Source of the DNA: Patescibacteria group bacterium
Lineage (GTDB): Bacteria > Patescibacteriota > Patescibacteriia > UBA10025 > JAHIVO01
Length of the DNA stretch: 64,000 nucleotides
Direction of reading: 5' to 3'
Assembly: GCA_028718605.1 (NCBI GenBank)
Contig: JAQULM010000001.1
Span: 94,693 to 158,692, forward strand
A program made the position numbers and the translations under genes. The notes beneath the pieces are model-generated. The model was not told where the DNA came from. It saw only the letters and a program-made list of their open reading frames with translations, and did no database searches. This document shows, one piece after another, positions 33,567 to 60,420 of this stretch; within the stretch, counting starts at the first letter, position 1, and the number at the start of each line of letters is the position of its first letter.

Positions 33567-35156
33567 TTATACTTCTAATAAATTATTTCCTGTCATGCCA
33601 GAAGAAGGCTTCAGCTGCATATACGTCAAAATAGTCACGGCGATATCTGATAGTATGCCCGTCGGCTGCAACATGCTTAAATCATGCTCGGTTATCATAT
33701 CACCGTATGGCCGTACATTCTCCCACTCACGGCCGACAGCGACGAACGGCACCGGATTCACGCTATGCTCCTTATCCATTGCTCCAGTCTGAAGATTTGT
33801 AAGCTCTTCCCCGTTGCCATGGTCGGCCGTGATAAACAGGAGACCGTCCAATTCCAGCACGGCATCGACAAGCTCACCGAGGCATTTATCAATCGCTTCA
33901 AGTGCCTTAACCGTTGCTTTAAATTTCCCGGTATGGCCAACCATATCGCAATTTGCATAATTGACGACGATAAAATCAAACGATGCTTTTTTAATTTCCT
34001 TGAGCAGCCGTTCGGTGACTTTCGGCGCGCTCATTTCGGGTTTCTGGTCATACGATGACACGGACGGTGATGGGACGATCATATTCTCTTGCCCCTCGTA
34101 CGGCTTTTCGTTGCCGCCATTGAAAAAATACGTTACATGGGCATACTTTTCAGTTTCCGCGATGTGGAGCTGGCGCAAGCCAGCCTGTGCGATGACCCAC
34201 CCGAGCGGATCGGCGATTTCAACCGGAGGGAATGCGACAATAGTCGGGAGATCCTTGTCATACTGGGTCATGCTGACGAAAAGAAGGTCCTTCAAGTACT
34301 GCGGGCGCTTAAATTTATCAAAACTTGGGAGAACAAATGCGGTGGTTATTTGGCGTGCCCTGTCCGGCCGAAAGTTGAAAAAAATCAGGGAATCCTTCGG
34401 GCCGACTATTGCCGTGGGTTTGTCCTCCGATCCGATTACTGTCGGGATAACCTCCTCGTCATACACTTCCTTGGCGTACGATTCCTGAATTGCCGTCATC
34501 GGATCTTTCGCATATTTTTCAGCAACTCCTTCGGCGATTGCACGGTACGCCTTCTCTTCCCGATCCCAGCGGTTATCACGGTCCATCGCGTAGTACCGTC
34601 CGGATAGTGTCGCAACCTTTCCAATTTTTAATTCTTTAATTTTTGCTTCAACTTTTTTCATCAGTTCAATGCCGCTGTCACGTGGCGAGTCACGGCCATC
34701 AAGCATGATATGAAGGTAGACATCTTTCAGTTTCTGCTTCTTGCAAAATTCCATGAGTGCAAAAAGATGGTCTGTCGATGAATGAACGCTGCCGACTCCT
34801 ATCAAACCCATGAGGTGCATCGCTGATTTATTCTGCTTCGCATGCTCAGCTGCCTGAATGAACGCGTCATTTTTGAAAAAACTCCCATCAGCAATGCTTC
34901 TCGAAATTCTCGGAAGATTCTGGTAGATGATGCGGCCGGCGCCGAGATTGAGATGGCCGACTTCGGAATTTCCCATTTCTCCCCATGGAAGTCCGACGGC
35001 TTCACTCGAAGCTTGGAGTGCCATTGTCGGATAGGTGTCTACCAGCTTATCCCATACCGGCATTTTCGCTGAGAACGTCGGATTCCCTTGCGACGGCGGC
35101 GCGATGCCAAATCCATCGAGAATGCACAGTACTACTGGTTTATGCGGAAGTTGCAT
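33567..35156 (-). CDS. gpmI: 2,3-bisphosphoglycerate-independent phosphoglycerate mutase (iPGM)
   Basis: VVLCILDGFG...EVGHLNLGAGR...DGRD; C-terminal ADHGN. Confidence 0.9.
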   Translation of the reverse strand: MQLPHKPVVLCILDGFGIAPPSQGNPTFSAKMPVWDKLVDTYPTMALQASSEAVGLPWGEMGNSEVGHLNLGAGRIIYQNLPRISRSIADGSFFKNDAFIQAAEHAKQNKSAMHLMGLIGVGSVHSSTDHLFALMEFCKKQKLKDVYLHIMLDGRDSPRDSGIELMKKVEAKIKELKIGKVATLSGRYYAMDRDNRWDREEKAYRAIAEGVAEKYAKDPMTAIQESYAKEVYDEEVIPTVIGSEDKPTAIVGPKDSLIFFNFRPDRARQITTAFVLPSFDKFKRPQYLKDLLFVSMTQYDKDLPTIVAFPPVEIADPLGWVIAQAGLRQLHIAETEKYAHVTYFFNGGNEKPYEGQENMIVPSPSVSSYDQKPEMSAPKVTERLLKEIKKASFDFIVVNYANCDMVGHTGKFKATVKALEAIDKCLGELVDAVLELDGLLFITADHGNGEELTNLQTGAMDKEHSVNPVPFVAVGREWENVRPYGDMITEHDLSMLQPTGILSDIAVTILTYMQLKPSSGMTGNNLLEV

Positions 35157-36709
35157 AGTATTTTGGTTTCTTTCATTTGGTTAGGCAGCGGGCAGCCCAT
35201 CATATGGACAATCGTCGGTGCGATATTCGCGAGAACACCGCGCTCGATCGGAATATCCCGCGGAATAGTTTTATTAACAATAATAAATGGCACGGGATTA
35301 CTCGAATGTGACGTATCCACTTGCCCGGTTTCAAGGTCAACAAGTTCTTCAACATTGCCATGGTCAGCGGTAATAACCAGCGTTCCCTCATGCTCGCGTA
35401 TAGCTCCATACAATCTGCCAATACACAGATCAACCGTTTGTACCGCGGTAATACACGCCGGCAGGTCACCCGTATGGCCAACCATGTCGGGATTCGCGTA
35501 ATTCACGCAGATGAAATCATACCGTTCATCATGGATCGATCGCACGATATAATCCGTCAATTGGGCAGCGCTCATTTCGGGCTTGTCTTTGTATGACTGG
35601 ATGTGGGGTGATTTGATGATAACCCGGTCTTCGTTCGCGACCGTGCTATCATGCCCGCCGTTCAGGAAGTACGTGACATGGGCGTATTTCTCTGTTTCAG
35701 CGGTGTATAACTGGCGCAATCCTTGGAGAGCGAATGGCAAGGTGCCAGGCAATACGCGCGCTGGGTATGCGGAAATGACACCGGGCAAATCAGGCCCGAA
35801 ATCCGTCAAGGAAACGAAGAATAAGTCATTGAGTACCTTTTTCCGGGGAAAGCCGATAAAATCTTTCTGGACAAACGCCTTGCATAGCTGGCGAACGCGA
35901 TCTGACCGGAGATTAAAAAAGATTACCGCATCATTATCCTCCAGGCGACGGCTGTTCCCATCACCATCAGTAATGACAGTCGGCTGGAGGTATTCATCGT
36001 TTTCATGCCTGTTATAACCGAGGAGTACCGCCTCAACGGCATCCTCCGCATGTACTCCGGTGCCTTCAACGAGCGTTTCGTATGCTTTCTGGGTCCGTTG
36101 CCATTCCTTAATCCTGTCCATCGCGTAGAAACGCCCGATAATGGTAGCGATTTTTTCTCCCGGTTCAAGCGTCCGCTTGATGCGGTCAATCAAGCGAATT
36201 GCGAGATATTGGTAGGAATCCCGGCCGTCGGTAAACAGATGTAAAGTCGTATTATGGATTTTTTTAATCCTCAGAAGCGTCAACAGCGCCAATAAGTGGT
36301 CTGGATCAGCATGCGCCGATTGCTCAGCAGTTATCATCCCCATGAGGTGAAGCCTCGAATTATGCTTTTGCACATGGCGTATTGCCGCAAGAAATGCGGG
36401 ATTCTTGAAAAACGTCCCCTCATTAATCGATTTAGAAATAATAACTGAATCTTGTTCCACGATCCGGCCAGCGCCGATATTCATATGCCCTGCTTCGGAA
36501 TTGCCATCCTGGGTCGGCGGCAAACCAGCATCCCTGCCGGACGCCCCGAGGAGAGTGTTCGGATAATTATCAGTCAGCATATCCATGATGGGCGTTGACG
36601 CAAGCGCGATTGCATTGCCGCGCGTTTCATTCCAAATCCCCCACCCATCAAGTATCGCAAGAATGAAGGGCTTCCGCTTCTTAGCTTCCGATGAAGAATT
36701 ATTTCCCAT
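35132..36709 (-). CDS. Second, divergent iPGM paralog placed in tandem
   Basis: FILAILDGWG...EAGHMNIGAGR...TDGRD...ITADHGN. It overlaps the downstream gpmI by 25 bp. Confidence 0.85.
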   Translation of the reverse strand: MGNNSSSEAKKRKPFILAILDGWGIWNETRGNAIALASTPIMDMLTDNYPNTLLGASGRDAGLPPTQDGNSEAGHMNIGAGRIVEQDSVIISKSINEGTFFKNPAFLAAIRHVQKHNSRLHLMGMITAEQSAHADPDHLLALLTLLRIKKIHNTTLHLFTDGRDSYQYLAIRLIDRIKRTLEPGEKIATIIGRFYAMDRIKEWQRTQKAYETLVEGTGVHAEDAVEAVLLGYNRHENDEYLQPTVITDGDGNSRRLEDNDAVIFFNLRSDRVRQLCKAFVQKDFIGFPRKKVLNDLFFVSLTDFGPDLPGVISAYPARVLPGTLPFALQGLRQLYTAETEKYAHVTYFLNGGHDSTVANEDRVIIKSPHIQSYKDKPEMSAAQLTDYIVRSIHDERYDFICVNYANPDMVGHTGDLPACITAVQTVDLCIGRLYGAIREHEGTLVITADHGNVEELVDLETGQVDTSHSSNPVPFIIVNKTIPRDIPIERGVLANIAPTIVHMMGCPLPNQMKETKILCNFRINQ

Positions 36710-39273: not shown

Positions 39274-39531
39274 TTACTTTTTGCCTCGTATTGAAACAAC
39301 TGAAATCGAATTGGACGCTGTTTTTTTGATAATCAACCGCGCCTTCGCAGCGACGGTATTTTTCCTTACTAAATTGAAATTGAATTTCAAATTTTGCGGG
39401 GTTATCGCTTGTCCATGCTGGACAAGAGTGCCCAGGCGCACCGTAACGCTCGTGATTTGCTTCAAATCGCGCAGTGCGGCCGTATGGACAGCTGTTTTCA
39501 GTATATCCTGCGCTGCAATTAAATCATGCAT
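39274..39531 (-). pseudogene. hypA: HypA-like fragment A: the Ni-binding N-terminal domain only, with no Zn-finger
   Basis: MHDLIAAQDILKTAVHTAALRDLKQITSVTVRLGTLVQHGQAITPQNLKFNFNLVRKNTVAAKARL... parallels E. coli HypA (MHEITLCQRALELIEQQAAKHGAKRVTGVWLKIGAFSCVETSSLAFCFDLVCRGSVAE). It then ends after 22 more residues with no CxxC...CxxC motifs. Confidence 0.55.
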
Positions 39532-39763
39532 ACCATCTCTCCTGCGGCTTGCCGCGTTCAATACGTATTCTGCGGTTCCAATGAAATACGCCTTCCCCTT
39601 ACAACTCTTCGTCTGATTTATCAGCTCTTTTCTCCGGTTCCGTATCGCCTGCTGCATGCTCGTCGGTATCGTTCGTATCTAATGGCTCACCACGCTCACT
39701 GTCTGGCTCATGGAATGGTGATAATCGTTCAGGCATACAATACAAAAGTTTATGTCCTCATCG

Positions 39764-40171
39764 CTAGTGCGTCGCACACGTCATGCACGGATCGTACGCA
39801 CGGATGAGGGTACCGAGTTTACGCGCATCGGGAGCATGTCGCCGGGCAGCACGTAAGTAGTGCTCCAAGTCAACCTCGAGATTGTTAATCATTTGCGCGG
39901 TCGGGGTAATAATATTTACATTTTTTAAAATACCAAGCCGATCTGTTTCGTAGTAATGCAGTAAAATTCCGCGCGGCGTTTCTATCGCAGCGACGGTATT
40001 TTTCCTTACTAAATTGAAATTGAATTTCAAATTTTGCGGGGTTATCGCTTGTCCATGCTGGACAAGAGTGCCCAGGCGCACCGTAACGCTCGTGATTTGC
40101 TTCAAATCGCGCAGTGCGGCTGTATTGACAGCCGTTTTCAGTATATCCTGCGCTGCAATTAAATCATGCAT
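39764..40171 (-). pseudogene. Chimeric ORF: HypA N-domain copy B fused in frame to a duplicated C-terminal 73 codons of the hydrogenase large subunit
   Basis: The first 62 aa are identical or near-identical to fragment A. The remainder, IETPRGILLHYYETDRLGIL...DPCMTCATH, matches the C-terminus of the ORF 40810..42066. Confidence 0.5.
39766..39993. repeat. Direct duplicate of the 3' end of the hydrogenase large-subunit gene (original at about 40813..41037)
   Basis: About 225 bp with only a few substitutions. It includes the DPCxxCxxH-encoding end. Confidence 0.8.
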
Positions 40172-40173
40172 AC
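39988..40173. repeat. Direct repeat, copy B of the hypA 5' segment (copy A lies at about 39350..39531, with few mismatches)
   Basis: A stretch of about 185 bp is nearly identical between the two loci when read directly. Confidence 0.8.
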
Positions 40174-40200
40174 GACTAAAAACTCGGCCAATGAATCAAA

Positions 40201-40785
40201 TTAGATATGTTCTTTTATTACTCCCTTCCCTGATTCAATGATATGTTCTTTCAAAAATGCTTCTACCACATCTACATTGTCTGGATTTGTGTACAAGGAC
40301 AAATAGGGGCTCATCTTTAAATTCGTATTAGCCCAACGCAAAAGAAACATTACGCCATGCCCTTTTATAACCGCCTTTGTTGCCATGCTATATATACCAG
40401 AACTGACACCAGTCATAACTGGTGTTACTCCATATGAAGCTTTTACTGGGGCGTTAAGCTTCGCCATTCTTTCATACGTCGTCAGATGGTCAAATTCCGA
40501 CCACACATGTTTTTCCTTCTTCTGCCCATACTGAATGCACACACCTTCATTATTTAATTCAATATCCATGCCTTGTCTGTATTTTCGAAATAAAGCTAAA
40601 TATAAAATTGTTGATAATAGCACGGCAATGGCAACCGTCACAACAACTCCAAACCAGCCCCATAGTTTTGGCCCCAGAATTATTAAAACTGTACCAATAA
40701 TCCAAGTGCATACTACTGCTACGATTGCAGGGCGCTGCCTTTCTTTAAAAACTTCCTTTGAAATTGAGTATTTTATTTCGGTCAT
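40201..40785 (-). CDS. Hypothetical membrane protein (194 aa) lying between the two duplicated segments
   Basis: Two N-terminal TM helices and then a soluble domain. No known motifs. Confidence 0.55.
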   Translation of the reverse strand: MTEIKYSISKEVFKERQRPAIVAVVCTWIIGTVLIILGPKLWGWFGVVVTVAIAVLLSTILYLALFRKYRQGMDIELNNEGVCIQYGQKKEKHVWSEFDHLTTYERMAKLNAPVKASYGVTPVMTGVSSGIYSMATKAVIKGHGVMFLLRWANTNLKMSPYLSLYTNPDNVDVVEAFLKEHIIESGKGVIKEHI

Positions 40786-40809
40786 AGTACTATCAGATTA
40801 TTTTATTTA

Positions 40810-42066
40810 CTAATGTGTTGCACACGTCATACACGGATCGTACGCACGGATGAGGGTACCGAGTTTACGCGCATCGGGAGCATGTCGCCGGGCAGCACGT
40901 AAGTAGTGCTCCAAGTCAACCTCGAGATTGTTAATCATTTGCGCGGTCGGGGTAATAATATTTACATTTTTTAAAATACCAAGCCGATCTGTTTCGTAGT
41001 AATGCAGTAAAATTCCGCGCGGCGCTTCTATCGCACCGACGCCCTTACCAGCACGAACGGTATACGCCGCCATCGGCTTTTGGTGTTTCATACGGAGATA
41101 CTGGGCGAGAAGTTTCTGAGTTTCTTCAACGCAGTGAATCAGCTCGACTCCCTGGCACCATACGTTATAGAACGGATTGTCGATCGGCATGCGGTGCCCG
41201 AGGTGCCGGAATGCCTGCCGCGCGATTGGATTCAGCTGGCGCCAGTTGTTGTTGACGCGCGAGAGCGCACCGACAAAATACGCTTCGCCTTTGTGTGTCG
41301 TCCGTTTAACATAATCATCGTCAGACTGGATTTCACGAACATGCCTCATGAATAACGATGGTTGCTGGCGTAATCCGTTTGTCGAAACAACTGCTGTTCC
41401 GTCATAGATCGAATATTCACGGGAAGACCGGAGGCTAATGTATTCAGTTTTCCGGTGGAAATCGGGGAATTTCAGATGTGAAATAAAATGAGCAAGCTCC
41501 ACTACCCCCATCATCACTTCCTGGCTGTCCGCAAGCAGCAATTCCAGCACGCGCCGGTTAGGGAGCTTTAAGAAACCGCCAACCTGTGAATTAACCGGAT
41601 GCAAGTTTCTGCCGCCGATGGCGTGTGATATGCGGTTTCCGTAATCACGGATTTTGAGCGCCAGCGCGCTCTGCTTCGGAGCAATGGCAAGCAAATCCAG
41701 CGCTGAATCCTTTCCGTAGAAATCTGGAATCGCCATGAAGTACGCGTGAACTGCGTGGCTCGTAATCGTCTGGGCGAGCATCATTAATTTGCGCAAAACA
41801 ACCGTACCCGGCGACACGCAGACGCGCATGGCGTTTTCCAGCGCTTTAATCGCTGTTAAATTGTGGACGATCGGGCACACGCCGCAAATCCGTGCCGTGA
41901 CGAGTGGCGCGTCCATGTAATTCCTGCCGATCAAGATGCCTTCGATAAGCCGCGCGCCCTCAAGCGTCAAATAACGCGCTTCGGGGATATTCCCCTTCTT
42001 GAGCGCTCCCCAGAACGTAGCGTGGCCCTCAATCCGCGTGACATGTTTGATAGTGACTGTCTTCAT
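40810..42066 (-). CDS. hydA: [NiFe]-hydrogenase large subunit, group 3 (sulfhydrogenase alpha-like)
   Basis: The N-terminal RIEGH...CGVC Ni-binding motif-1 region and the C-terminal DPCMTCATH. 418 aa. Confidence 0.9.
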   Translation of the reverse strand: MKTVTIKHVTRIEGHATFWGALKKGNIPEARYLTLEGARLIEGILIGRNYMDAPLVTARICGVCPIVHNLTAIKALENAMRVCVSPGTVVLRKLMMLAQTITSHAVHAYFMAIPDFYGKDSALDLLAIAPKQSALALKIRDYGNRISHAIGGRNLHPVNSQVGGFLKLPNRRVLELLLADSQEVMMGVVELAHFISHLKFPDFHRKTEYISLRSSREYSIYDGTAVVSTNGLRQQPSLFMRHVREIQSDDDYVKRTTHKGEAYFVGALSRVNNNWRQLNPIARQAFRHLGHRMPIDNPFYNVWCQGVELIHCVEETQKLLAQYLRMKHQKPMAAYTVRAGKGVGAIEAPRGILLHYYETDRLGILKNVNIITPTAQMINNLEVDLEHYLRAARRHAPDARKLGTLIRAYDPCMTCATH

Positions 42067-42869
42067 GTTTTTTTCTGGCTGTTATACCATTCTTCCTGTA
42101 TCCCAAACACCTGCAGTATCCGCTCTAAATTTTTCCTGCTGGTGCCTTTTAAAATCTGCTGTTCAAGCTGTGCGCTGCTGTATCCGGCCAATAATCCGCG
42201 GCACCCTTTGCAGAAAAACTTTAAATTCAGGCAGACGGCATCGCACCCGCCGCGCGTCACGGGCCCGAGGCACGGCTCTCCTTTTTGCAACAGGCACTCG
42301 TTGCCGTTCAACTGGCACTCATAGCAAACAGGGTTCTCTAAAAGCCTTGGGTTGATTCCTTCGCGAACTGCGTTCAACACGGCAATCACGTCCCTGCCGT
42401 CGGGCGGGCATCCGGGAAGGCAAAAATCCACGTTAACATACTTCCGGAGCGGCAGAATGTCCATATTATCAACCTGCTTCCAGGTTTTCGGGTACTGGTA
42501 CCGCACTGCTTTCCCTTTATCAATATAATTTTTAATATTGGGAATCACGCCCTGGCATGCGCATGCGCCGTACGCTACTAAGATTTTTGTCCGTTTCCGC
42601 GCTTCTTTCAGGGCTGCGATGTTCTTTTTTGTTAATGGCGCTCCTTCGATAAAGGTAACGTCATACTGTGCCTTCTTGTTTTTCTCGTCCATGATCAGGA
42701 AAAAATCGCCAAGCTCAAAATGATCGACCGCGGCGATGAATTCCGCGCCCATGTCAATCGCGGTCACCGAGCAGCCGTCGCACGACGTGAGACCGACGAT
42801 CGCGACGCGCAGCTTCCGACGCTTTGAGTAATGAGCGGAGGCGTTCATTTTTGAACTATGGTTTTTCAT
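42063..42869 (-). CDS. hydD: [NiFe]-hydrogenase small subunit (delta-like)
   Basis: VAIVGLTSCDGCS...GACACQG...CLPGCPP cysteine clusters. A 4-bp overlap with hydA. Confidence 0.85.
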   Translation of the reverse strand: MKNHSSKMNASAHYSKRRKLRVAIVGLTSCDGCSVTAIDMGAEFIAAVDHFELGDFFLIMDEKNKKAQYDVTFIEGAPLTKKNIAALKEARKRTKILVAYGACACQGVIPNIKNYIDKGKAVRYQYPKTWKQVDNMDILPLRKYVNVDFCLPGCPPDGRDVIAVLNAVREGINPRLLENPVCYECQLNGNECLLQKGEPCLGPVTRGGCDAVCLNLKFFCKGCRGLLAGYSSAQLEQQILKGTSRKNLERILQVFGIQEEWYNSQKKT

Positions 42870-43738
42870 TTGAACGAGATAGGTGGGATTTCGGAATCAA
42901 GCTTCTTAACGCATAAGTACGCGGCGGTGTACGCCATCGCATCACAAATATCAGCTGCGGTGATCGTCTCACCCCGGAGAGCTTCTAACTCATTGAATAC
43001 TTCTGCCGTTTCAAAATAATCTTCGGTCGGGCCACAGCTCGCCCGGTATGTGGCATTATCCGACTCAAGCAATGCGAGGGCATCCCCATCCGCATCGAGG
43101 GCTCGGAGGTACGCTTCCGCGAACGGCTTCCACTGCCGACATATATCCAGCATTTCTTGACGCAACGCCGGTTTGTCCTGAATGGAAAGATTGCCTGACC
43201 AAATATTTATGCAAAACGTATCGGAGAAAAAACGATCGTCAATTTTTCCCGACGAGATCGGATTGTAGCAGTTTTTCACTTCATCGGCATCGCTGTATGA
43301 ATCACCGTCAGAATCAGCCTTAAGATCACTCGTCCCATAATACCCTTCGAGCAGGTCGTTCATTCCATCCTCGTCCTCGTCCAGTGGCAGGTCGATGGCA
43401 TTGGTATTGGCGAGGGAATTTGTGTTAAGTCCAGTATTGTCGTTCAACATGATGCCGCCGTTGGTATTTTTATTCGAGGAAGTATTTGTATTCCGGTTCT
43501 GTGACGGCTGCGAATTGCTGTTTGCCTCCTGATTCTGGTTTGCAACAACCAGGTTTTCATTGTTCGAATTCGCATTACCCTTCGCGAAAAAGAAATAGTA
43601 CGCCGCGCCAGCACCAGCAATGACCACGATCCCGATAAGAATGATGAGCAACATCTTCGAATTGTTTTTCTCCGCCGGCGTCAGCGGCGCCTGGCGGTAC
43701 TGCGCTGGCGGCACCTTGATGATGGGGTTTATTTCCAT
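42866..43738 (-). CDS. Membrane-anchored protein with an N/S/T-rich linker and two acidic Ca-binding-like DxDxDG repeats, embedded in the hydrogenase operon
   Basis: A TM at LLIILIGIVVIAGAGAAYYFFF; DEDEDGMNDLLE and DSDGDSYSDADE; a Cys-containing C-terminal domain. It overlaps hydD by 4 bp and hypC by 10 bp. Confidence 0.55.
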   Translation of the reverse strand: MEINPIIKVPPAQYRQAPLTPAEKNNSKMLLIILIGIVVIAGAGAAYYFFFAKGNANSNNENLVVANQNQEANSNSQPSQNRNTNTSSNKNTNGGIMLNDNTGLNTNSLANTNAIDLPLDEDEDGMNDLLEGYYGTSDLKADSDGDSYSDADEVKNCYNPISSGKIDDRFFSDTFCINIWSGNLSIQDKPALRQEMLDICRQWKPFAEAYLRALDADGDALALLESDNATYRASCGPTEDYFETAEVFNELEALRGETITAADICDAMAYTAAYLCVKKLDSEIPPISFK

Positions 43739-43941
43739 ACATTTTGAATTAGTTGTAAACGTTTCAAGGCTTCTCTTTGGGGAATTGCACCGACCGCATA
43801 TCCATTTTCAGACATGACCCAGTTTCCCTTTTTTGCATGTGGCAGCAGCCGCACGTCGAGAGCGTGGGTCTTTTTGCCGCACTGGACGCGGGCCGTCGCA
43901 CCTTTGATTGATAGTATCTTATGTGGAATGGCGAGGCACAT
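43729..43941 (-). CDS. hypC: Hydrogenase maturation factor HypC
   Basis: N-terminal MCLAIP motif; 70 aa. Confidence 0.85.
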   Translation of the reverse strand: MCLAIPHKILSIKGATARVQCGKKTHALDVRLLPHAKKGNWVMSENGYAVGAIPQREALKRLQLIQNVWK

Positions 43942-44074
43942 AGTTTAAATCGTTTGAGTTTGTGTTGGCGCTGCGCGTATCGTTATACGATCGGATCCTT
44001 AACCTCAGACGACACCTTTATATCCTGCCGATACAAGCGGCAACACCGCAACCGTTATACGCCACTTCGACTAG

Positions 44075-44869
44075 CTAACTCTGAAAGATTACTTTCGCTT
44101 CTTTCGGAAATTTTATTTTTTTCAAATCCTCTTCCTGCCACAGGCGCTGGAAATCAACGCCGAGCTTCGACTGTTCAATAATCTTGCCTGCCATGTCAAC
44201 CCTGAAAAAAGATTCTTTCGCATAATCGATGTTTTTCCCGAAAACCTGCCGGGATAGTTTCTGGACAAACGCCTTGCCATTTTGCCTGCGCTGCAAGCTT
44301 CGTGCGAGATCTCGCAATACGGGGGTGGAAGCAACCGCGAGTACAACGCCGAAATGGTGGAATACTACTGAACCAACGCGTACCGTAAGTTCTCTGGGGA
44401 CGAGCACGTGTGAAAACTTGACCCGTGCGCCAGTAACAGTTACTTCAATATCGGCGAGCTGCCGCTGCTCAACGCTCCGGCACTGTTTGGCCGTGCCAAT
44501 CGTGAGCAAATGCGCGAGCGCGTACGCTGGCTGCATCTGGAGGTGCTCGAGATTCTCTTCAATCGCGTCAGCATGGTCAAGCGCGTAACATTCGAGCAAA
44601 TCAGCTCCGGTGATCACCCGTATTCCTTTCCGCTGCGCAAACCGGGCGGCTTGCGACGGAAACGCGGTGATGATGTGCGGTGATATGTCAGTGAGCGATA
44701 CCGGCTTACCGGTTAAAAATTTCGCGAGGTTGATGTCCGATTTGCATCCGGGGTGCAGAAACGCACGAACGAGTATTTCCACCGCTTCCGGCTCAAAGAT
44801 AATTGTTCCGAAATTCTTGAACGCGAGGCGCCGCGCCTTTTCAAGGTTTTTAATGATCTCGCGCGCCAT
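44075..44869 (-). CDS. Hypothetical protein inside the hydrogenase cluster (about 265 aa)
   Basis: A long ORF with an N-terminal Cys/His patch (CACCHHP) but no P-loop. It is not HypB, HypD or HypE by motif. The start is uncertain. Confidence 0.45.
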   Translation of the reverse strand: MAREIIKNLEKARRLAFKNFGTIIFEPEAVEILVRAFLHPGCKSDINLAKFLTGKPVSLTDISPHIITAFPSQAARFAQRKGIRVITGADLLECYALDHADAIEENLEHLQMQPAYALAHLLTIGTAKQCRSVEQRQLADIEVTVTGARVKFSHVLVPRELTVRVGSVVFHHFGVVLAVASTPVLRDLARSLQRRQNGKAFVQKLSRQVFGKNIDYAKESFFRVDMAGKIIEQSKLGVDFQRLWQEEDLKKIKFPKEAKVIFQS

Positions 44870-45800
44870 ACGATTGGGATGATGGCAACAGGCGCAAGCG
44901 GCGGATTCCAACAATACTCACAACACCGGCGACCATAAACGCCATGCCGACCCACTGTAGGGAATGTATTGATACCGTGCCCTGCGCAATCAACGTGACA
45001 ACAGACGTTATCGGTGCCCCAAGCGCCAGCACCGCAGTCGCAACCGACGCCCGTACATATTTTAAGCCGGTATAGAACGTAAACACGTAGCCGAATAAAA
45101 ACGCGGATGCAATAGCAATCCATTTCCAATGCTCGGCGGTGTACGAAAATATACTGCCAGCCTGGCCTGTTACTGCTAAAAATCCAAAAATAATGACTGA
45201 ACCCAGAAACATTCGCCCCCACATAACAATGCGCGGGGATAGTGTATTCAGCGTTCGTTTTGCAATTACGATTTCAGCGGCCCACATCAGCGTGGCGAGG
45301 AACACCAGACAGTCTCCCCAGTTCAATGCCTGTGGCCCGATGCCAAGGAATAAAATACTGCCGACGACCAACGCGGCTAAACCAATCAACAAACTCTTGT
45401 TTATTTTCTCTTTCAAAAACACGATTGCCAGAAAACTGACGTACAGAAACATCGTCTTGTGGATGAACCCGCCCTTTGCTGCGGATGTCAACGAGAGCCC
45501 TTTGAAAAACAGCAGGAACGGCACTGAACCGCCGATCACGCCGATCAGCGTAAGCTTAAGCCAGTCTTTCCCTTTCAAACGAATGATGTCCCGCCATTCT
45601 TTCGCACACAAAACAACGGCGCATAATCCGAGCGCCACGATCACGTTCTTTAAACCGGTAAACACGTATGGGTTCGCAAACTTTACGCCGATTGAGTTGA
45701 CGTAAATCGATACGCCGGATATCACGGCGGTCGCGAGTACAAAGAGGATGCCTTTTCGTTCGTTCATATTCCGAGCAACGATTAAATTTCCAATTACCAA
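44850..45800 (-). CDS. DMT-superfamily (EamA-like) transporter
   Basis: Ten predicted TM helices in a 5+5 duplicated arrangement. Confidence 0.75.
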   Translation of the reverse strand: MVIGNLIVARNMNERKGILFVLATAVISGVSIYVNSIGVKFANPYVFTGLKNVIVALGLCAVVLCAKEWRDIIRLKGKDWLKLTLIGVIGGSVPFLLFFKGLSLTSAAKGGFIHKTMFLYVSFLAIVFLKEKINKSLLIGLAALVVGSILFLGIGPQALNWGDCLVFLATLMWAAEIVIAKRTLNTLSPRIVMWGRMFLGSVIIFGFLAVTGQAGSIFSYTAEHWKWIAIASAFLFGYVFTFYTGLKYVRASVATAVLALGAPITSVVTLIAQGTVSIHSLQWVGMAFMVAGVVSIVGIRRLRLLPSSQSYGARDH

Positions 45801-45900
45801 ATCCTAATACCCAATCAATGTCCAATGAGGAAAAAACCAATGACTAATTGGTGAATTGAATATTGGGGAATTCATTGGAAATTGGATATTGGTCATTGAA
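45801..45900. repeat. CCAAT/ATTGG foldback element (MITE-like, no cargo) between the transporter gene and hydG
   Basis: The left half carries repeated CCAAT motifs and the right half repeated ATTGG motifs (ttcattggaaattggatattgg). The two halves are related to the terminal arms of the element at 58420..58960. Confidence 0.5.
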
Positions 45901-45902
45901 TA

Positions 45903-46736
45903 TTATTTATACTGCACTGTATCTTTCAATTGCGCATAGGTAAAGACAGGGCCGTCTTTGCACACGTAGTACGGCCCGATCGCGCAATGCTGGCACGTCC
46001 CCAGGCCCGCGCAGTGCATCCGGCGTTCAAGCGACAAGTAAATGCTTTCATCCGAATAACCAACGTTCTGCACTTCGGGCACAACAAACTTGAACATGAT
46101 GGGCGGCCCGCACAGCACAGCAACGCCGTTTTTCACGACATCCGCTTTTTTAAACAGGACAGTTATCACACCTTTGTAGCACGAAATTGGGCCAATTGTC
46201 GTATCAGTGCCCTGGTCCATGGACATGGTAATAGTAAACATTTTTCCGAGCTTTTTCATTTCTGATTTAAAGAGAATCGCGCCAAGGTCACGGCACCCGT
46301 ACAGCAATTGAACCTGGCGGTGTTCTGTATCAAGCAGGTTCCGGTTAATTAAATAGTGCAGCAACGAACGCAGCGGCACGAGGCCTAGCCCGCCCGCGAT
46401 GAGTAGGATATTTTTCTTCTCAAATTTCTTGAGGTCGAAACCGTTGCCGTACGGTCCGCGGACGCCAAACGTATCGCCTGCTTTCAGCTCATGGAACTTG
46501 CCCGTTACCCTGCCGACGTTCATCACGGCGATATCGTACGTGTTTTTTTCGGTTAACGATTCGGCAGGCACGAAAACCGATTCGCCGAATCCTGGCAGTG
46601 AGAATACGAAAAACTGGCCAGGATTATATACAAGCGCACCACCGCTTTTCAACTTGAACCTGAACGATTTCACGTTCGGCGTCTGTTGCTCTGTTCCAGT
46701 AATTTTCGCTTCTTGTGTTTGGTAGGGATTCAGCAT
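45903..46736 (-). CDS. hydG: Sulfhydrogenase gamma-like subunit (FAD/NAD(P)-binding oxidoreductase with a C-terminal 2Fe-2S cluster)
   Basis: A ferredoxin-reductase-type fold (RPYS-like PYQTQ...; GGLGLVP) and a C-terminal cysteine cluster CAGLGTCQHC. The start is taken at MLNPYQ. Confidence 0.8.
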   Translation of the reverse strand: MLNPYQTQEAKITGTEQQTPNVKSFRFKLKSGGALVYNPGQFFVFSLPGFGESVFVPAESLTEKNTYDIAVMNVGRVTGKFHELKAGDTFGVRGPYGNGFDLKKFEKKNILLIAGGLGLVPLRSLLHYLINRNLLDTEHRQVQLLYGCRDLGAILFKSEMKKLGKMFTITMSMDQGTDTTIGPISCYKGVITVLFKKADVVKNGVAVLCGPPIMFKFVVPEVQNVGYSDESIYLSLERRMHCAGLGTCQHCAIGPYYVCKDGPVFTYAQLKDTVQYK

Positions 46737-46849
46737 GATGATTAGGTTGAGGTGGCGTTTTCGCTGCTCGTATCGTAATACGGTTCCGTACTGCGGCTTT
46801 ATGCCGATAGCCACAAACGACACCGATACGGGCGGCGATACCGCTACCG

Positions 46850-59999: not shown

Positions 60000-60420
60000 G
60001 CTTGTCACTCTGACCTGCTGGACGTTTAGAGATCGCCGCGCTTCGCTCGCGATGACAGAAAAAGTATGTCTTTGCGACCGGAGCGAAGCAATCAAGTTCA
60101 GATTCCGGGTCAAGCCCGGAATGACCAGGGTTTATTATTTTGTCATCCTGAACTTGATTCGGCGTCGAGCCATCTCACCCTCTGTCACTCTGACCCGCCA
60201 TTGGGTGGGGAAGAGTCCCCTGGCCGGAGGCCAGGAGATGCTTTGCATGCAGTGGCGTCATGGGGTCTCTCGTTACACATGAAGGAGGCGGTGACCAACC
60301 CAGTTTGTCACCCTGAACGCAGTGAAGGGTCCCCTGGCCGATTGTCCAGAGATCGCCGCGCTTCGCTCGCGATGACAGAAAAAGTATGTCTTTGCGAGCG
60401 CAGCGAAGCAATCTCATGAG
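60000..60420. repeat. Hairpin-rich repeat block
   Basis: Two copies of a 66-bp palindromic unit (60028..60093 and 60348..60413). Several GTCA(C/T)CCTGAAC / TGTCACTCTGACC boxes. Perfect palindromes attccgggtcaagcccggaat and cctggccggaggccagg. Confidence 0.55.

Follow-up and report, generated by a model that had tools for sequence, protein, structure and literature searches.

The locus described here lies at the end of a [NiFe]-hydrogenase operon in a Patescibacteria contig. Coordinates refer to the window, the 64-kb stretch of this contig that was analysed, and all genes of the locus are on the minus strand. From 5' to 3' these are the small subunit gene, the large subunit gene (hydA), an orphan gene (M), an open reading frame (ORF) in which the head of hypA is joined to the tail of hydA, a spacer (S) and hypA itself, then pgk, eno and gpmI. 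Approximately 1 kb is present twice in this arrangement, head to tail: hydA tail, M and hypA head are directly followed by hydA tail, spacer and hypA head, with one novel junction between the two units.

Layout of the locus

The genes and repeats are listed with the basis of each call (aa, amino acids; nt, nucleotides; GC, guanine plus cytosine content).

42869..42063, minus strand: hydrogenase small subunit (ORF)
42066..40810, minus strand: hydA, [NiFe]-hydrogenase large subunit, 418 aa (ORF and Pfam)
40810..41041, minus strand: original copy of direct repeat D1, the final 229 nt of hydA with its stop codon (repeat search)
40121..40831, minus strand: divergent tract, comprising the end of hydA (22 nt), the low-GC insert and the start of hypA copy B (51 nt)
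40785..40201, minus strand: M, orphan protein of 194 aa, between hydA and the chimeric ORF (ORF)
40171..39764, minus strand: chimeric HypA-N::HydA-C ORF, 135 aa (ORF and Pfam)
39985..40173, minus strand: copy B of direct repeat D2, hypA codons 1-62 plus 2 nt upstream (repeat search)
39764..39995, minus strand: duplicate copy of D1, hydA 3' end (repeat search)
39763..39534, minus strand: S spacer between the chimeric ORF and hypA, 230 nt, GC 48%
39531..39274, minus strand: hypA (copy A), 85 aa from an MHDL start (ORF, Pfam and predicted fold)
39345..39533, minus strand: copy A of D2, inside the intact hypA (repeat search)

D1 (232 nt; 39764-39995 against 40810-41041) and D2 (189 nt; 39345-39533 against 39985-40173) are direct repeats with 97% and 98% identity, respectively. 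The window has no other long repeats except for one 66-nt pair near 60 kb (60028-60093 and 60348-60413), which is 97% identical, has its copies 320 nt apart and apparently falls between ORFs. The first-pass annotation, made from the letters alone, had described two near-identical segments coding for the HypA N-terminus and a duplicate of the hydA 3' end, and both are recovered within a few bases of where it placed them. Promoter, terminator, Rfam and tRNA scans of the locus gave no informative result.

The large subunit gene is intact, as had been proposed, and belongs to what may be a 3b-like gene set. Its 418-aa product carries the metal-ligand motifs RICGVCP and DPCMTCATH in one ORF, matches the Pfam family NiFeSe_Hases (PF00374) with 103.5 bits, a score that places it in the family, and aligns over its full length (residues 1-418) to relatives at 70–73% identity. 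The protein ends at the histidine of DPCMTCATH (40810-40836) and carries no C-terminal extension for a maturation endopeptidase. The same is true of all relatives (ends compared: L005:7228-7257, L006:7228-7257 and L007:2277-2306, where L numbers denote collected contigs). L005 (CAZBNI010000014.1) and L007 (CAZJUO010000102.1) are titled 'uncultured Gammaproteobacteria bacterium', yet carry a Patescibacteria-like hydA and short hypA locus, with HydA 70–73% identical and, in L005, pgk and eno next; their taxonomic labels look doubtful.

In the chimeric ORF, residues 1-62 of HypA continue in frame into residues 346-418 of HydA, the last 73 of that protein. Copy B of the hypA head does run in frame into the hydA duplicate, as first noticed, and the ORF ends with DPCMTCATH. 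In Pfam it scores 27.0 bits for HypA and 25.1 bits for NiFeSe_Hases, both just under the cut-off. The 194-aa gene that had been seen between the copies corresponds to M, and its product has two N-terminal hydrophobic segments. NCBI annotates the chimera as MDD5715196.1, HypA as MDD5715194.1 and M as MDD5715197.1 (locus tags PHF98_).

The 85-residue HypA

Both hypA copies were initially taken for truncated fragments, copy A because its last 22 residues appeared unrelated to HypA, and the locus was thought to be possibly without a complete hypA. Sequence comparison and modelling show that this is correct for copy B, which lacks two strands of the domain, and incorrect for copy A, which has the full length typical of its lineage. 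Applied to both copies, the Pfam HypA model (PF01155) gives copy A 37.4 bits against a cut-off of 28.9, which the chimera fails to reach. The match covers residues 1-72 of copy A on profile positions 1-68 of 112, i.e. it continues beyond the 62 residues that are duplicated. In three related genomes whose HydA is 70–73% identical, an 85- or 86-aa hypA directly follows hydA, and beyond it lie pgk and then eno in both of the two with further sequence. Copy A aligns to these orthologues from end to end without gaps at 48–54% identity, including the tail ...A-L-I---G-----I-V-G-K. With 18 further metagenome loci, 21 related loci were compared overall. In each of the 18 loci for which sequence upstream is available, hydA is succeeded by a short hypA (85–86 aa) that shares the C-terminal strand; in 13 of them pgk comes next. 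Examples are found in the window (39274-39531, minus strand) and at L005:7436-7693, L006:7362-7622 and L007:2753-3010.

The fold of copy A was predicted with AlphaFold (AF2) from 42 family members, in all of which M1 and H2 are invariant. The model (predicted local distance difference test score, pLDDT, 87.3) contains helices at residues 2-20 and 45-55 and strands at 25-33, 65-70 and 76-84, so that the last 22 residues of copy A form the final two strands. A Foldseek search of the PDB with this model returned HypA structures as all of its top 14 matches, with a template modelling (TM) score of 0.88 and a root-mean-square deviation of 1.8 Å for 3A43_B and a TM score of 0.82 for H. pylori 6G81. 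The best structural alignments cover the whole target and skip the zinc module. Because the Pfam match, the orthologue alignments and the predicted fold all extend over them, the last 22 residues of copy A are taken to be homologous to the remainder of HypA. Copy B alone is a hypA fragment.

Neither copy contains the zinc module with its two CxxC pairs, in agreement with the first-pass annotation. Copy A has no cysteine at all, and a search of the whole window found no other HypA-like sequence and no separate zinc module. A HypA profile search of 1.84 billion representative proteins gave 146 clusters (at 50% identity), 103 of which are of 96 aa or less. Two CxxC pairs occur in none of these 103, and 64 are free of cysteine; 54 of the short homologues start with MHD and 40 with MHE. 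They match the copy A query over its full length, whereas HypAs of canonical length match only query positions 1 to ~70. Members of this nickel-domain-only family (e.g. proteins P0005-P0150) are 77–95 aa long, start with MHD or MHE and are without CxxC pairs. Since the orthologues, the 103 of 146 clusters and the predicted fold agree, the absence of the zinc module is a family trait rather than a truncation, and copy A is a complete, lineage-typical HypA that consists of the nickel domain only. It is accordingly placed, on sequence and modelled fold, in a nickel-domain-only subfamily of HypA rather than with canonical HypA.

The assignment to the HypA family as such is supported by several likenesses to canonical members (PF01155; T. 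kodakarensis 3A43/5YXY and H. pylori 6G81). Both repeat copies begin with MHD, and the Met-His-Glu/Asp nickel-binding motif, the Met-His-acidic N-terminus of canonical HypA, is present. The helix-strand-helix-strand-strand order of the nickel domain is shared (TM 0.82–0.88), the 85-aa form being known here from sequence and model. As with canonical HypA, the gene adjoins that of the [NiFe]-hydrogenase large subunit. In contrast, the canonical protein carries an inserted zinc module of ~30–35 residues with two CxxC pairs, which is replaced by a short turn in the 85-aa form, and it is ~113–140 aa long; the short form is common to the whole family of homologues. A 2025 review describes HypA as a nickel domain plus a zinc finger, and this is the only form described there.

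There is no evidence of functional loss at this locus. As regards annotation, hypA has not been lost, and there is no ground to predict a crippled hydrogenase. Delivery of nickel to the large subunit by the 85-aa HypA is predicted from genomic association, the gene being placed after hydA in 18 of 18 loci. If nickel-domain-only HypA serves the [NiFe]-hydrogenase operons of this lineage, the role of the zinc module is open to a natural experiment. This family is a more noteworthy by-product of the analysis than the tandem itself.

Junction, spacers and divergence between the copies

At the novel junction D1 and D2 overlap by 11 nt (39985-39995, minus strand), which read CGTCGCTGCGA. The parental site in hypA is exactly CGTCGCTGCGA and that in hydA is CGTCGGTGCGA. 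The two match at 10 of 11 positions and are joined in the same reading frame (GTC GNT GCG). By our arithmetic, the chance of a match of at least 10/11 at a random pair of sites is ~8e-6. This short identity between the parental sites is a microhomology, and the head-to-tail order with one novel junction is that of a microhomology-mediated tandem duplication. Such duplications have been studied in Salmonella and E. coli as join-point duplications. The present tandem resembles these RecA-independent duplications in its head-to-tail segment, in its single junction at a short imperfect repeat, in the fusion ORF at the join and in being resolvable by homologous recombination between the copies. It differs in that the centres of the units are unrelated, an orphan gene in one and a native spacer in the other, and in that the adjoining coding ends differ by ~10%. 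The event belongs to this known class, with differing unit centres. As the units differ, either a second event or an exchange between two alleles has to be assumed.

The spacers between the repeat copies are unrelated in sequence (636 nt, containing M, against 230 nt), and the two units thus share no internal sequence. This difference points to two alleles in tandem rather than to a simple duplication. M has a GC of 38.5%, compared with ~50–52% in the flanking genes, and the 24-nt spacer upstream of it has a GC of 16.7%, a composition foreign to the locus. Among 5.8 billion proteins M has no homologue other than M itself in two metagenome-assembled genomes (MAGs), and against Pfam and PHROG it gives sub-threshold matches only, over its hydrophobic part. 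Judged by sequence, M is apparently an accessory gene inserted into the hydA-hypA spacer. The 3' end of the S spacer resembles the spacer of the relative L006. It holds a doubtful 45-aa acidic ORF (39736..39599) and has no Pfam, Rfam or tRNA match. When M, the 45-aa spacer ORF and the small subunit were looked up, the other MAG of the population gave the only matches. Exact-protein searches with the chimera, the long pgk ORF and the long 127-aa ORF gave no match, and the genome of the window is absent from the GTDB species representatives.

The hydA-hypA spacer of relatives ranges from 1 to 806 nt. Unrelated low-GC ORFs occupy it, coding for ~230 aa (L014:1322-2127, L016:111-821) and 116–121 aa (L007:2307-2752, L021:2574-3000). 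With further ORFs of 299 aa (L018:356-1317) and 87 aa (L019:553-940), the hydA-hypA and hypA-pgk spacers of relatives thus contain different ORFs, mostly of lower GC than the upstream flank. The hydA-hypA-pgk stretch seems to be a recurrent insertion spot. In this respect it is like a flexible genomic islet, where one intergenic position carries different low-GC ORFs from relative to relative and differences cluster in the flanks by the insert. Unlike in such islets, both versions are here kept in one molecule and neither replaces the other.

Apart from the junction, eight differences separate the repeat copies, and seven of these adjoin the heterologous spacer (7 in 73 nt against 1 in 321 nt, Fisher p=4e-5). 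Within the divergent tract, the 22 nt of hydA contain four differences, all synonymous, and the 51 nt of hypA contain three, two of them synonymous. Outside the tract, the junction and position 39979, the copies are identical over 193 + 136 nt. Six of the eight differences are synonymous, where a fraction of 0.24 is expected (p=0.003). This mostly synonymous pattern makes it likely that the copy ends diverged in separate lineages, while they still belonged to working genes. The eighth difference, at 39979, lies in the duplicate hydA tail 6 nt from the junction, where it replaces an Ala by Thr within the conserved IEAPRG motif. All relatives have Ala, so this change is derived, and it would fit either an unconstrained fragment or error-prone joining. 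The clustering and the mostly synonymous character of the differences argue against decay in place and for two pre-existing spacer alleles that came to lie in tandem.

Origin of the tandem and neighbouring genes

We favour, with a probability of about 0.6, a real tandem that is present in at least part of the population as an ordinary structural variant. The ancestral order in the lineage would be hydA, a short spacer, the 85-aa hypA, pgk and eno, with the hydA-hypA spacer as a variable slot whose accessory genes differ among relatives. The population would hold two versions of this spacer, the native-like S of 230 nt and M with its low-GC orphan gene. M may have been brought in from a donor that was ~10% divergent, by homologous replacement that included ~22 nt of the hydA tail and ~51 nt of the hypA head. 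The window would then show both versions in tandem, i.e. hydA, M, hypA codons 1-62, the junction, the last 232 nt of hydA, the S spacer and full-length hypA. Since the junction lies in the 10/11 microhomology, RecA-independent illegitimate recombination is the likely source, either by unequal exchange or by template switching, between sister or incoming copies. The duplication of S with S could have come first, followed by import of M into the left unit through homologous exchange in the flanks; alternatively, an unequal exchange between M and S could have given the tandem directly. The data do not choose between these two orders of events. A clean S allele would be regained by recombination between the hydA tails, and a clean M allele by recombination between the hypA heads; hydA and hypA are intact in both. 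A single step of homology-facilitated illegitimate recombination with a uniformly divergent donor was considered as sole cause and rejected; the divergence does not extend beyond 40831..40121, and hypA copy B otherwise shows no difference from copy A.

In this assembly the whole structure is covered by a single contig of 651,121 bp, on which the NCBI annotation has the four genes in the order given above. GCA_028711455.1, another MAG from this population, is identical to the window over 8.8 kb on one side and differs at one base in 11.2 kb on the other. That base (34980), the only one that differs in the stretches compared, is a synonymous change in the second of two genes that resemble cofactor-independent phosphoglycerate mutase (iPGM). 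The warning about the assembly that accompanied the first description was justified, as this independent assembly breaks exactly at the repeats. Each of its contig ends there lies exactly 128 nt from the nearest copy-specific base (k+1, with k=127). In a de Bruijn graph simulation such ends arise whether the genome is a tandem or M-only and S-only genomes are mixed, which makes them uninformative. For assembly quality control in general, contig ends at k+1 from copy-specific bases cannot separate a true repeat from a mixture of alleles.

Several observations weigh against a real tandem. It requires two rare events at one 1-kb locus, and the donor lineage of M was not found in the protein database search. 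The support for the junction consists of an assembled contig, not of reads. The junction is absent from GCA_028711455.1, where contig 3 stops at 39994 and contig 2 begins at 39912, and the 81 nt that include it (39913..39993) are in neither contig. The Logan contig L004 (SRR22315508) starts at the repeat boundary 39533, which implies that two left flanks exist, and runs through 39345 without a branch. At k=31 a branch at 39345 is predicted by the tandem genome only, so that the junction is probably absent or rare in SRR22315508; coverage there looks low. Beyond these contigs, an exact-DNA scan of Joint Genome Institute (JGI) metagenome contigs for the core of the hypA head gave no match and hence no further samples of the population, and no paper mentions the accessions.

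Alternatively, each cell of the population may have either hydA-M-hypA or hydA-spacer-hypA, with the tandem of the two alleles made by the assembler, so that the chimera exists in no genome. The junction would then stem from rare chimeric reads or from a merging step. Template switching in vitro yields microhomology junctions, and it could have given this one as well. A mixture of two alleles predicts the exact breaks of GCA_028711455.1, and the branch of L004 at 39533 without one at 39345 is the pattern of a mixture at k=31. The units, with their clustered and mostly synonymous differences, also resemble alleles. False (haplotypic) duplications in assemblies of mixed populations are similar in that two allelic versions stand side by side and the other assembly breaks at the repeats. 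They differ from the present case, where the join shows neither a gap nor a run of N nor an overlap of k-mer length, the 10/11-nt match being far below any k used. The junction here is also non-allelic, from hypA codon 62 to hydA codon 346. The simulated mixture of M and S alleles contains no edge from hypA to hydA at k=31 or k=127, and thus no path that leads from codon 62 of hypA into hydA. Gap closers of the SPAdes type accept a minimum overlap of about 10 nt. A join of this kind was ruled out as the source of the junction, as the 136 nt before it are identical to copy A and leave no dead end to be closed. In addition, the bridging segment 39913..39993 carries its own variant, A at 39979, which is found in neither public contig and suggests separate read evidence. 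Assembly would normally prune a rare chimeric read from the path of a 651-kb contig, and the window holds no other repeat that looks like a false duplication. An artefact of assembly or a pure mixture is on balance doubtful, though worth taking seriously.

The original proposal of a tandem duplication with insertion or replacement stands as regards the head-to-tail duplication and the chimera. In its fuller form, where one sequence was duplicated and diverged in place, later received an insertion and left two truncated hypA genes and no working hypA at the locus, it is very unlikely. The head-to-tail order and the microhomology junction would fit it, as would the lack of a zinc module in both hypA copies. 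However, copy A is complete for its family, the spacers are unrelated, and M is foreign in composition. The differences, 6/8 of them synonymous, lie next to the spacer and are not spread as by neutral decay.

A function of the chimera, as a decoy or regulator of nickel insertion that combines the HypA MHD N-terminus with the DPCxxCxxH ligands, is highly improbable. In its favour, the in-frame fusion retains the two metal-binding motifs, HypA docks on the immature large subunit (PDB 5YXY), and near the stop codon none of the four differences in the duplicated hydA tail changes the protein. That synonymous pattern is nevertheless explained by divergence before the join. A HypA-N::HydA-C fusion is found in only this one contig among 5.8 billion proteins and in 0 of 21 related loci. 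Both Pfam scores fall under their cut-offs, the conserved IEAPRG motif is altered in the hydA fragment, and of the three beta-strands that the HypA nickel domain has in the AF2 model, the chimera is without the last two (65-70 and 76-84). Most likely the chimera is a by-product of the junction and has no function, and the 135-aa 'hypothetical protein' of GenBank, MDD5715196.1, would be this by-product. An expressed fusion that interferes with nickel insertion is a more remote possibility. A difference in Shine-Dalgarno sequence had been considered as an argument against translation of copy B and was dropped; relatives show no conserved motif.

If the tandem is real, it may also act as a cassette that can be resolved in two ways and sustains polymorphism of the accessory gene in a nearly clonal population. 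We regard this as rather improbable. In that case, cells in all three states would account for the mixed signals of the three assemblies.

Two features of the neighbouring genes are of additional interest. Between the gene for the FAD/NAD-binding subunit and that for the small subunit, the hydrogenase gene set is interrupted (42866-46823, minus strand) by genes for an EamA transporter, a 264–279-aa protein of no assigned function, hypC and a 290-aa protein. The 290-aa protein has a transmembrane segment and a low-complexity region, and a comparable protein precedes the small subunit in L005 and L006. Directly after eno lie the two iPGM-like genes, at 35132-36709 and 33567-35156 (both on the minus strand), which overlap slightly and code for proteins of 525 and 529 aa with Metalloenzyme and iPGM_N domains.

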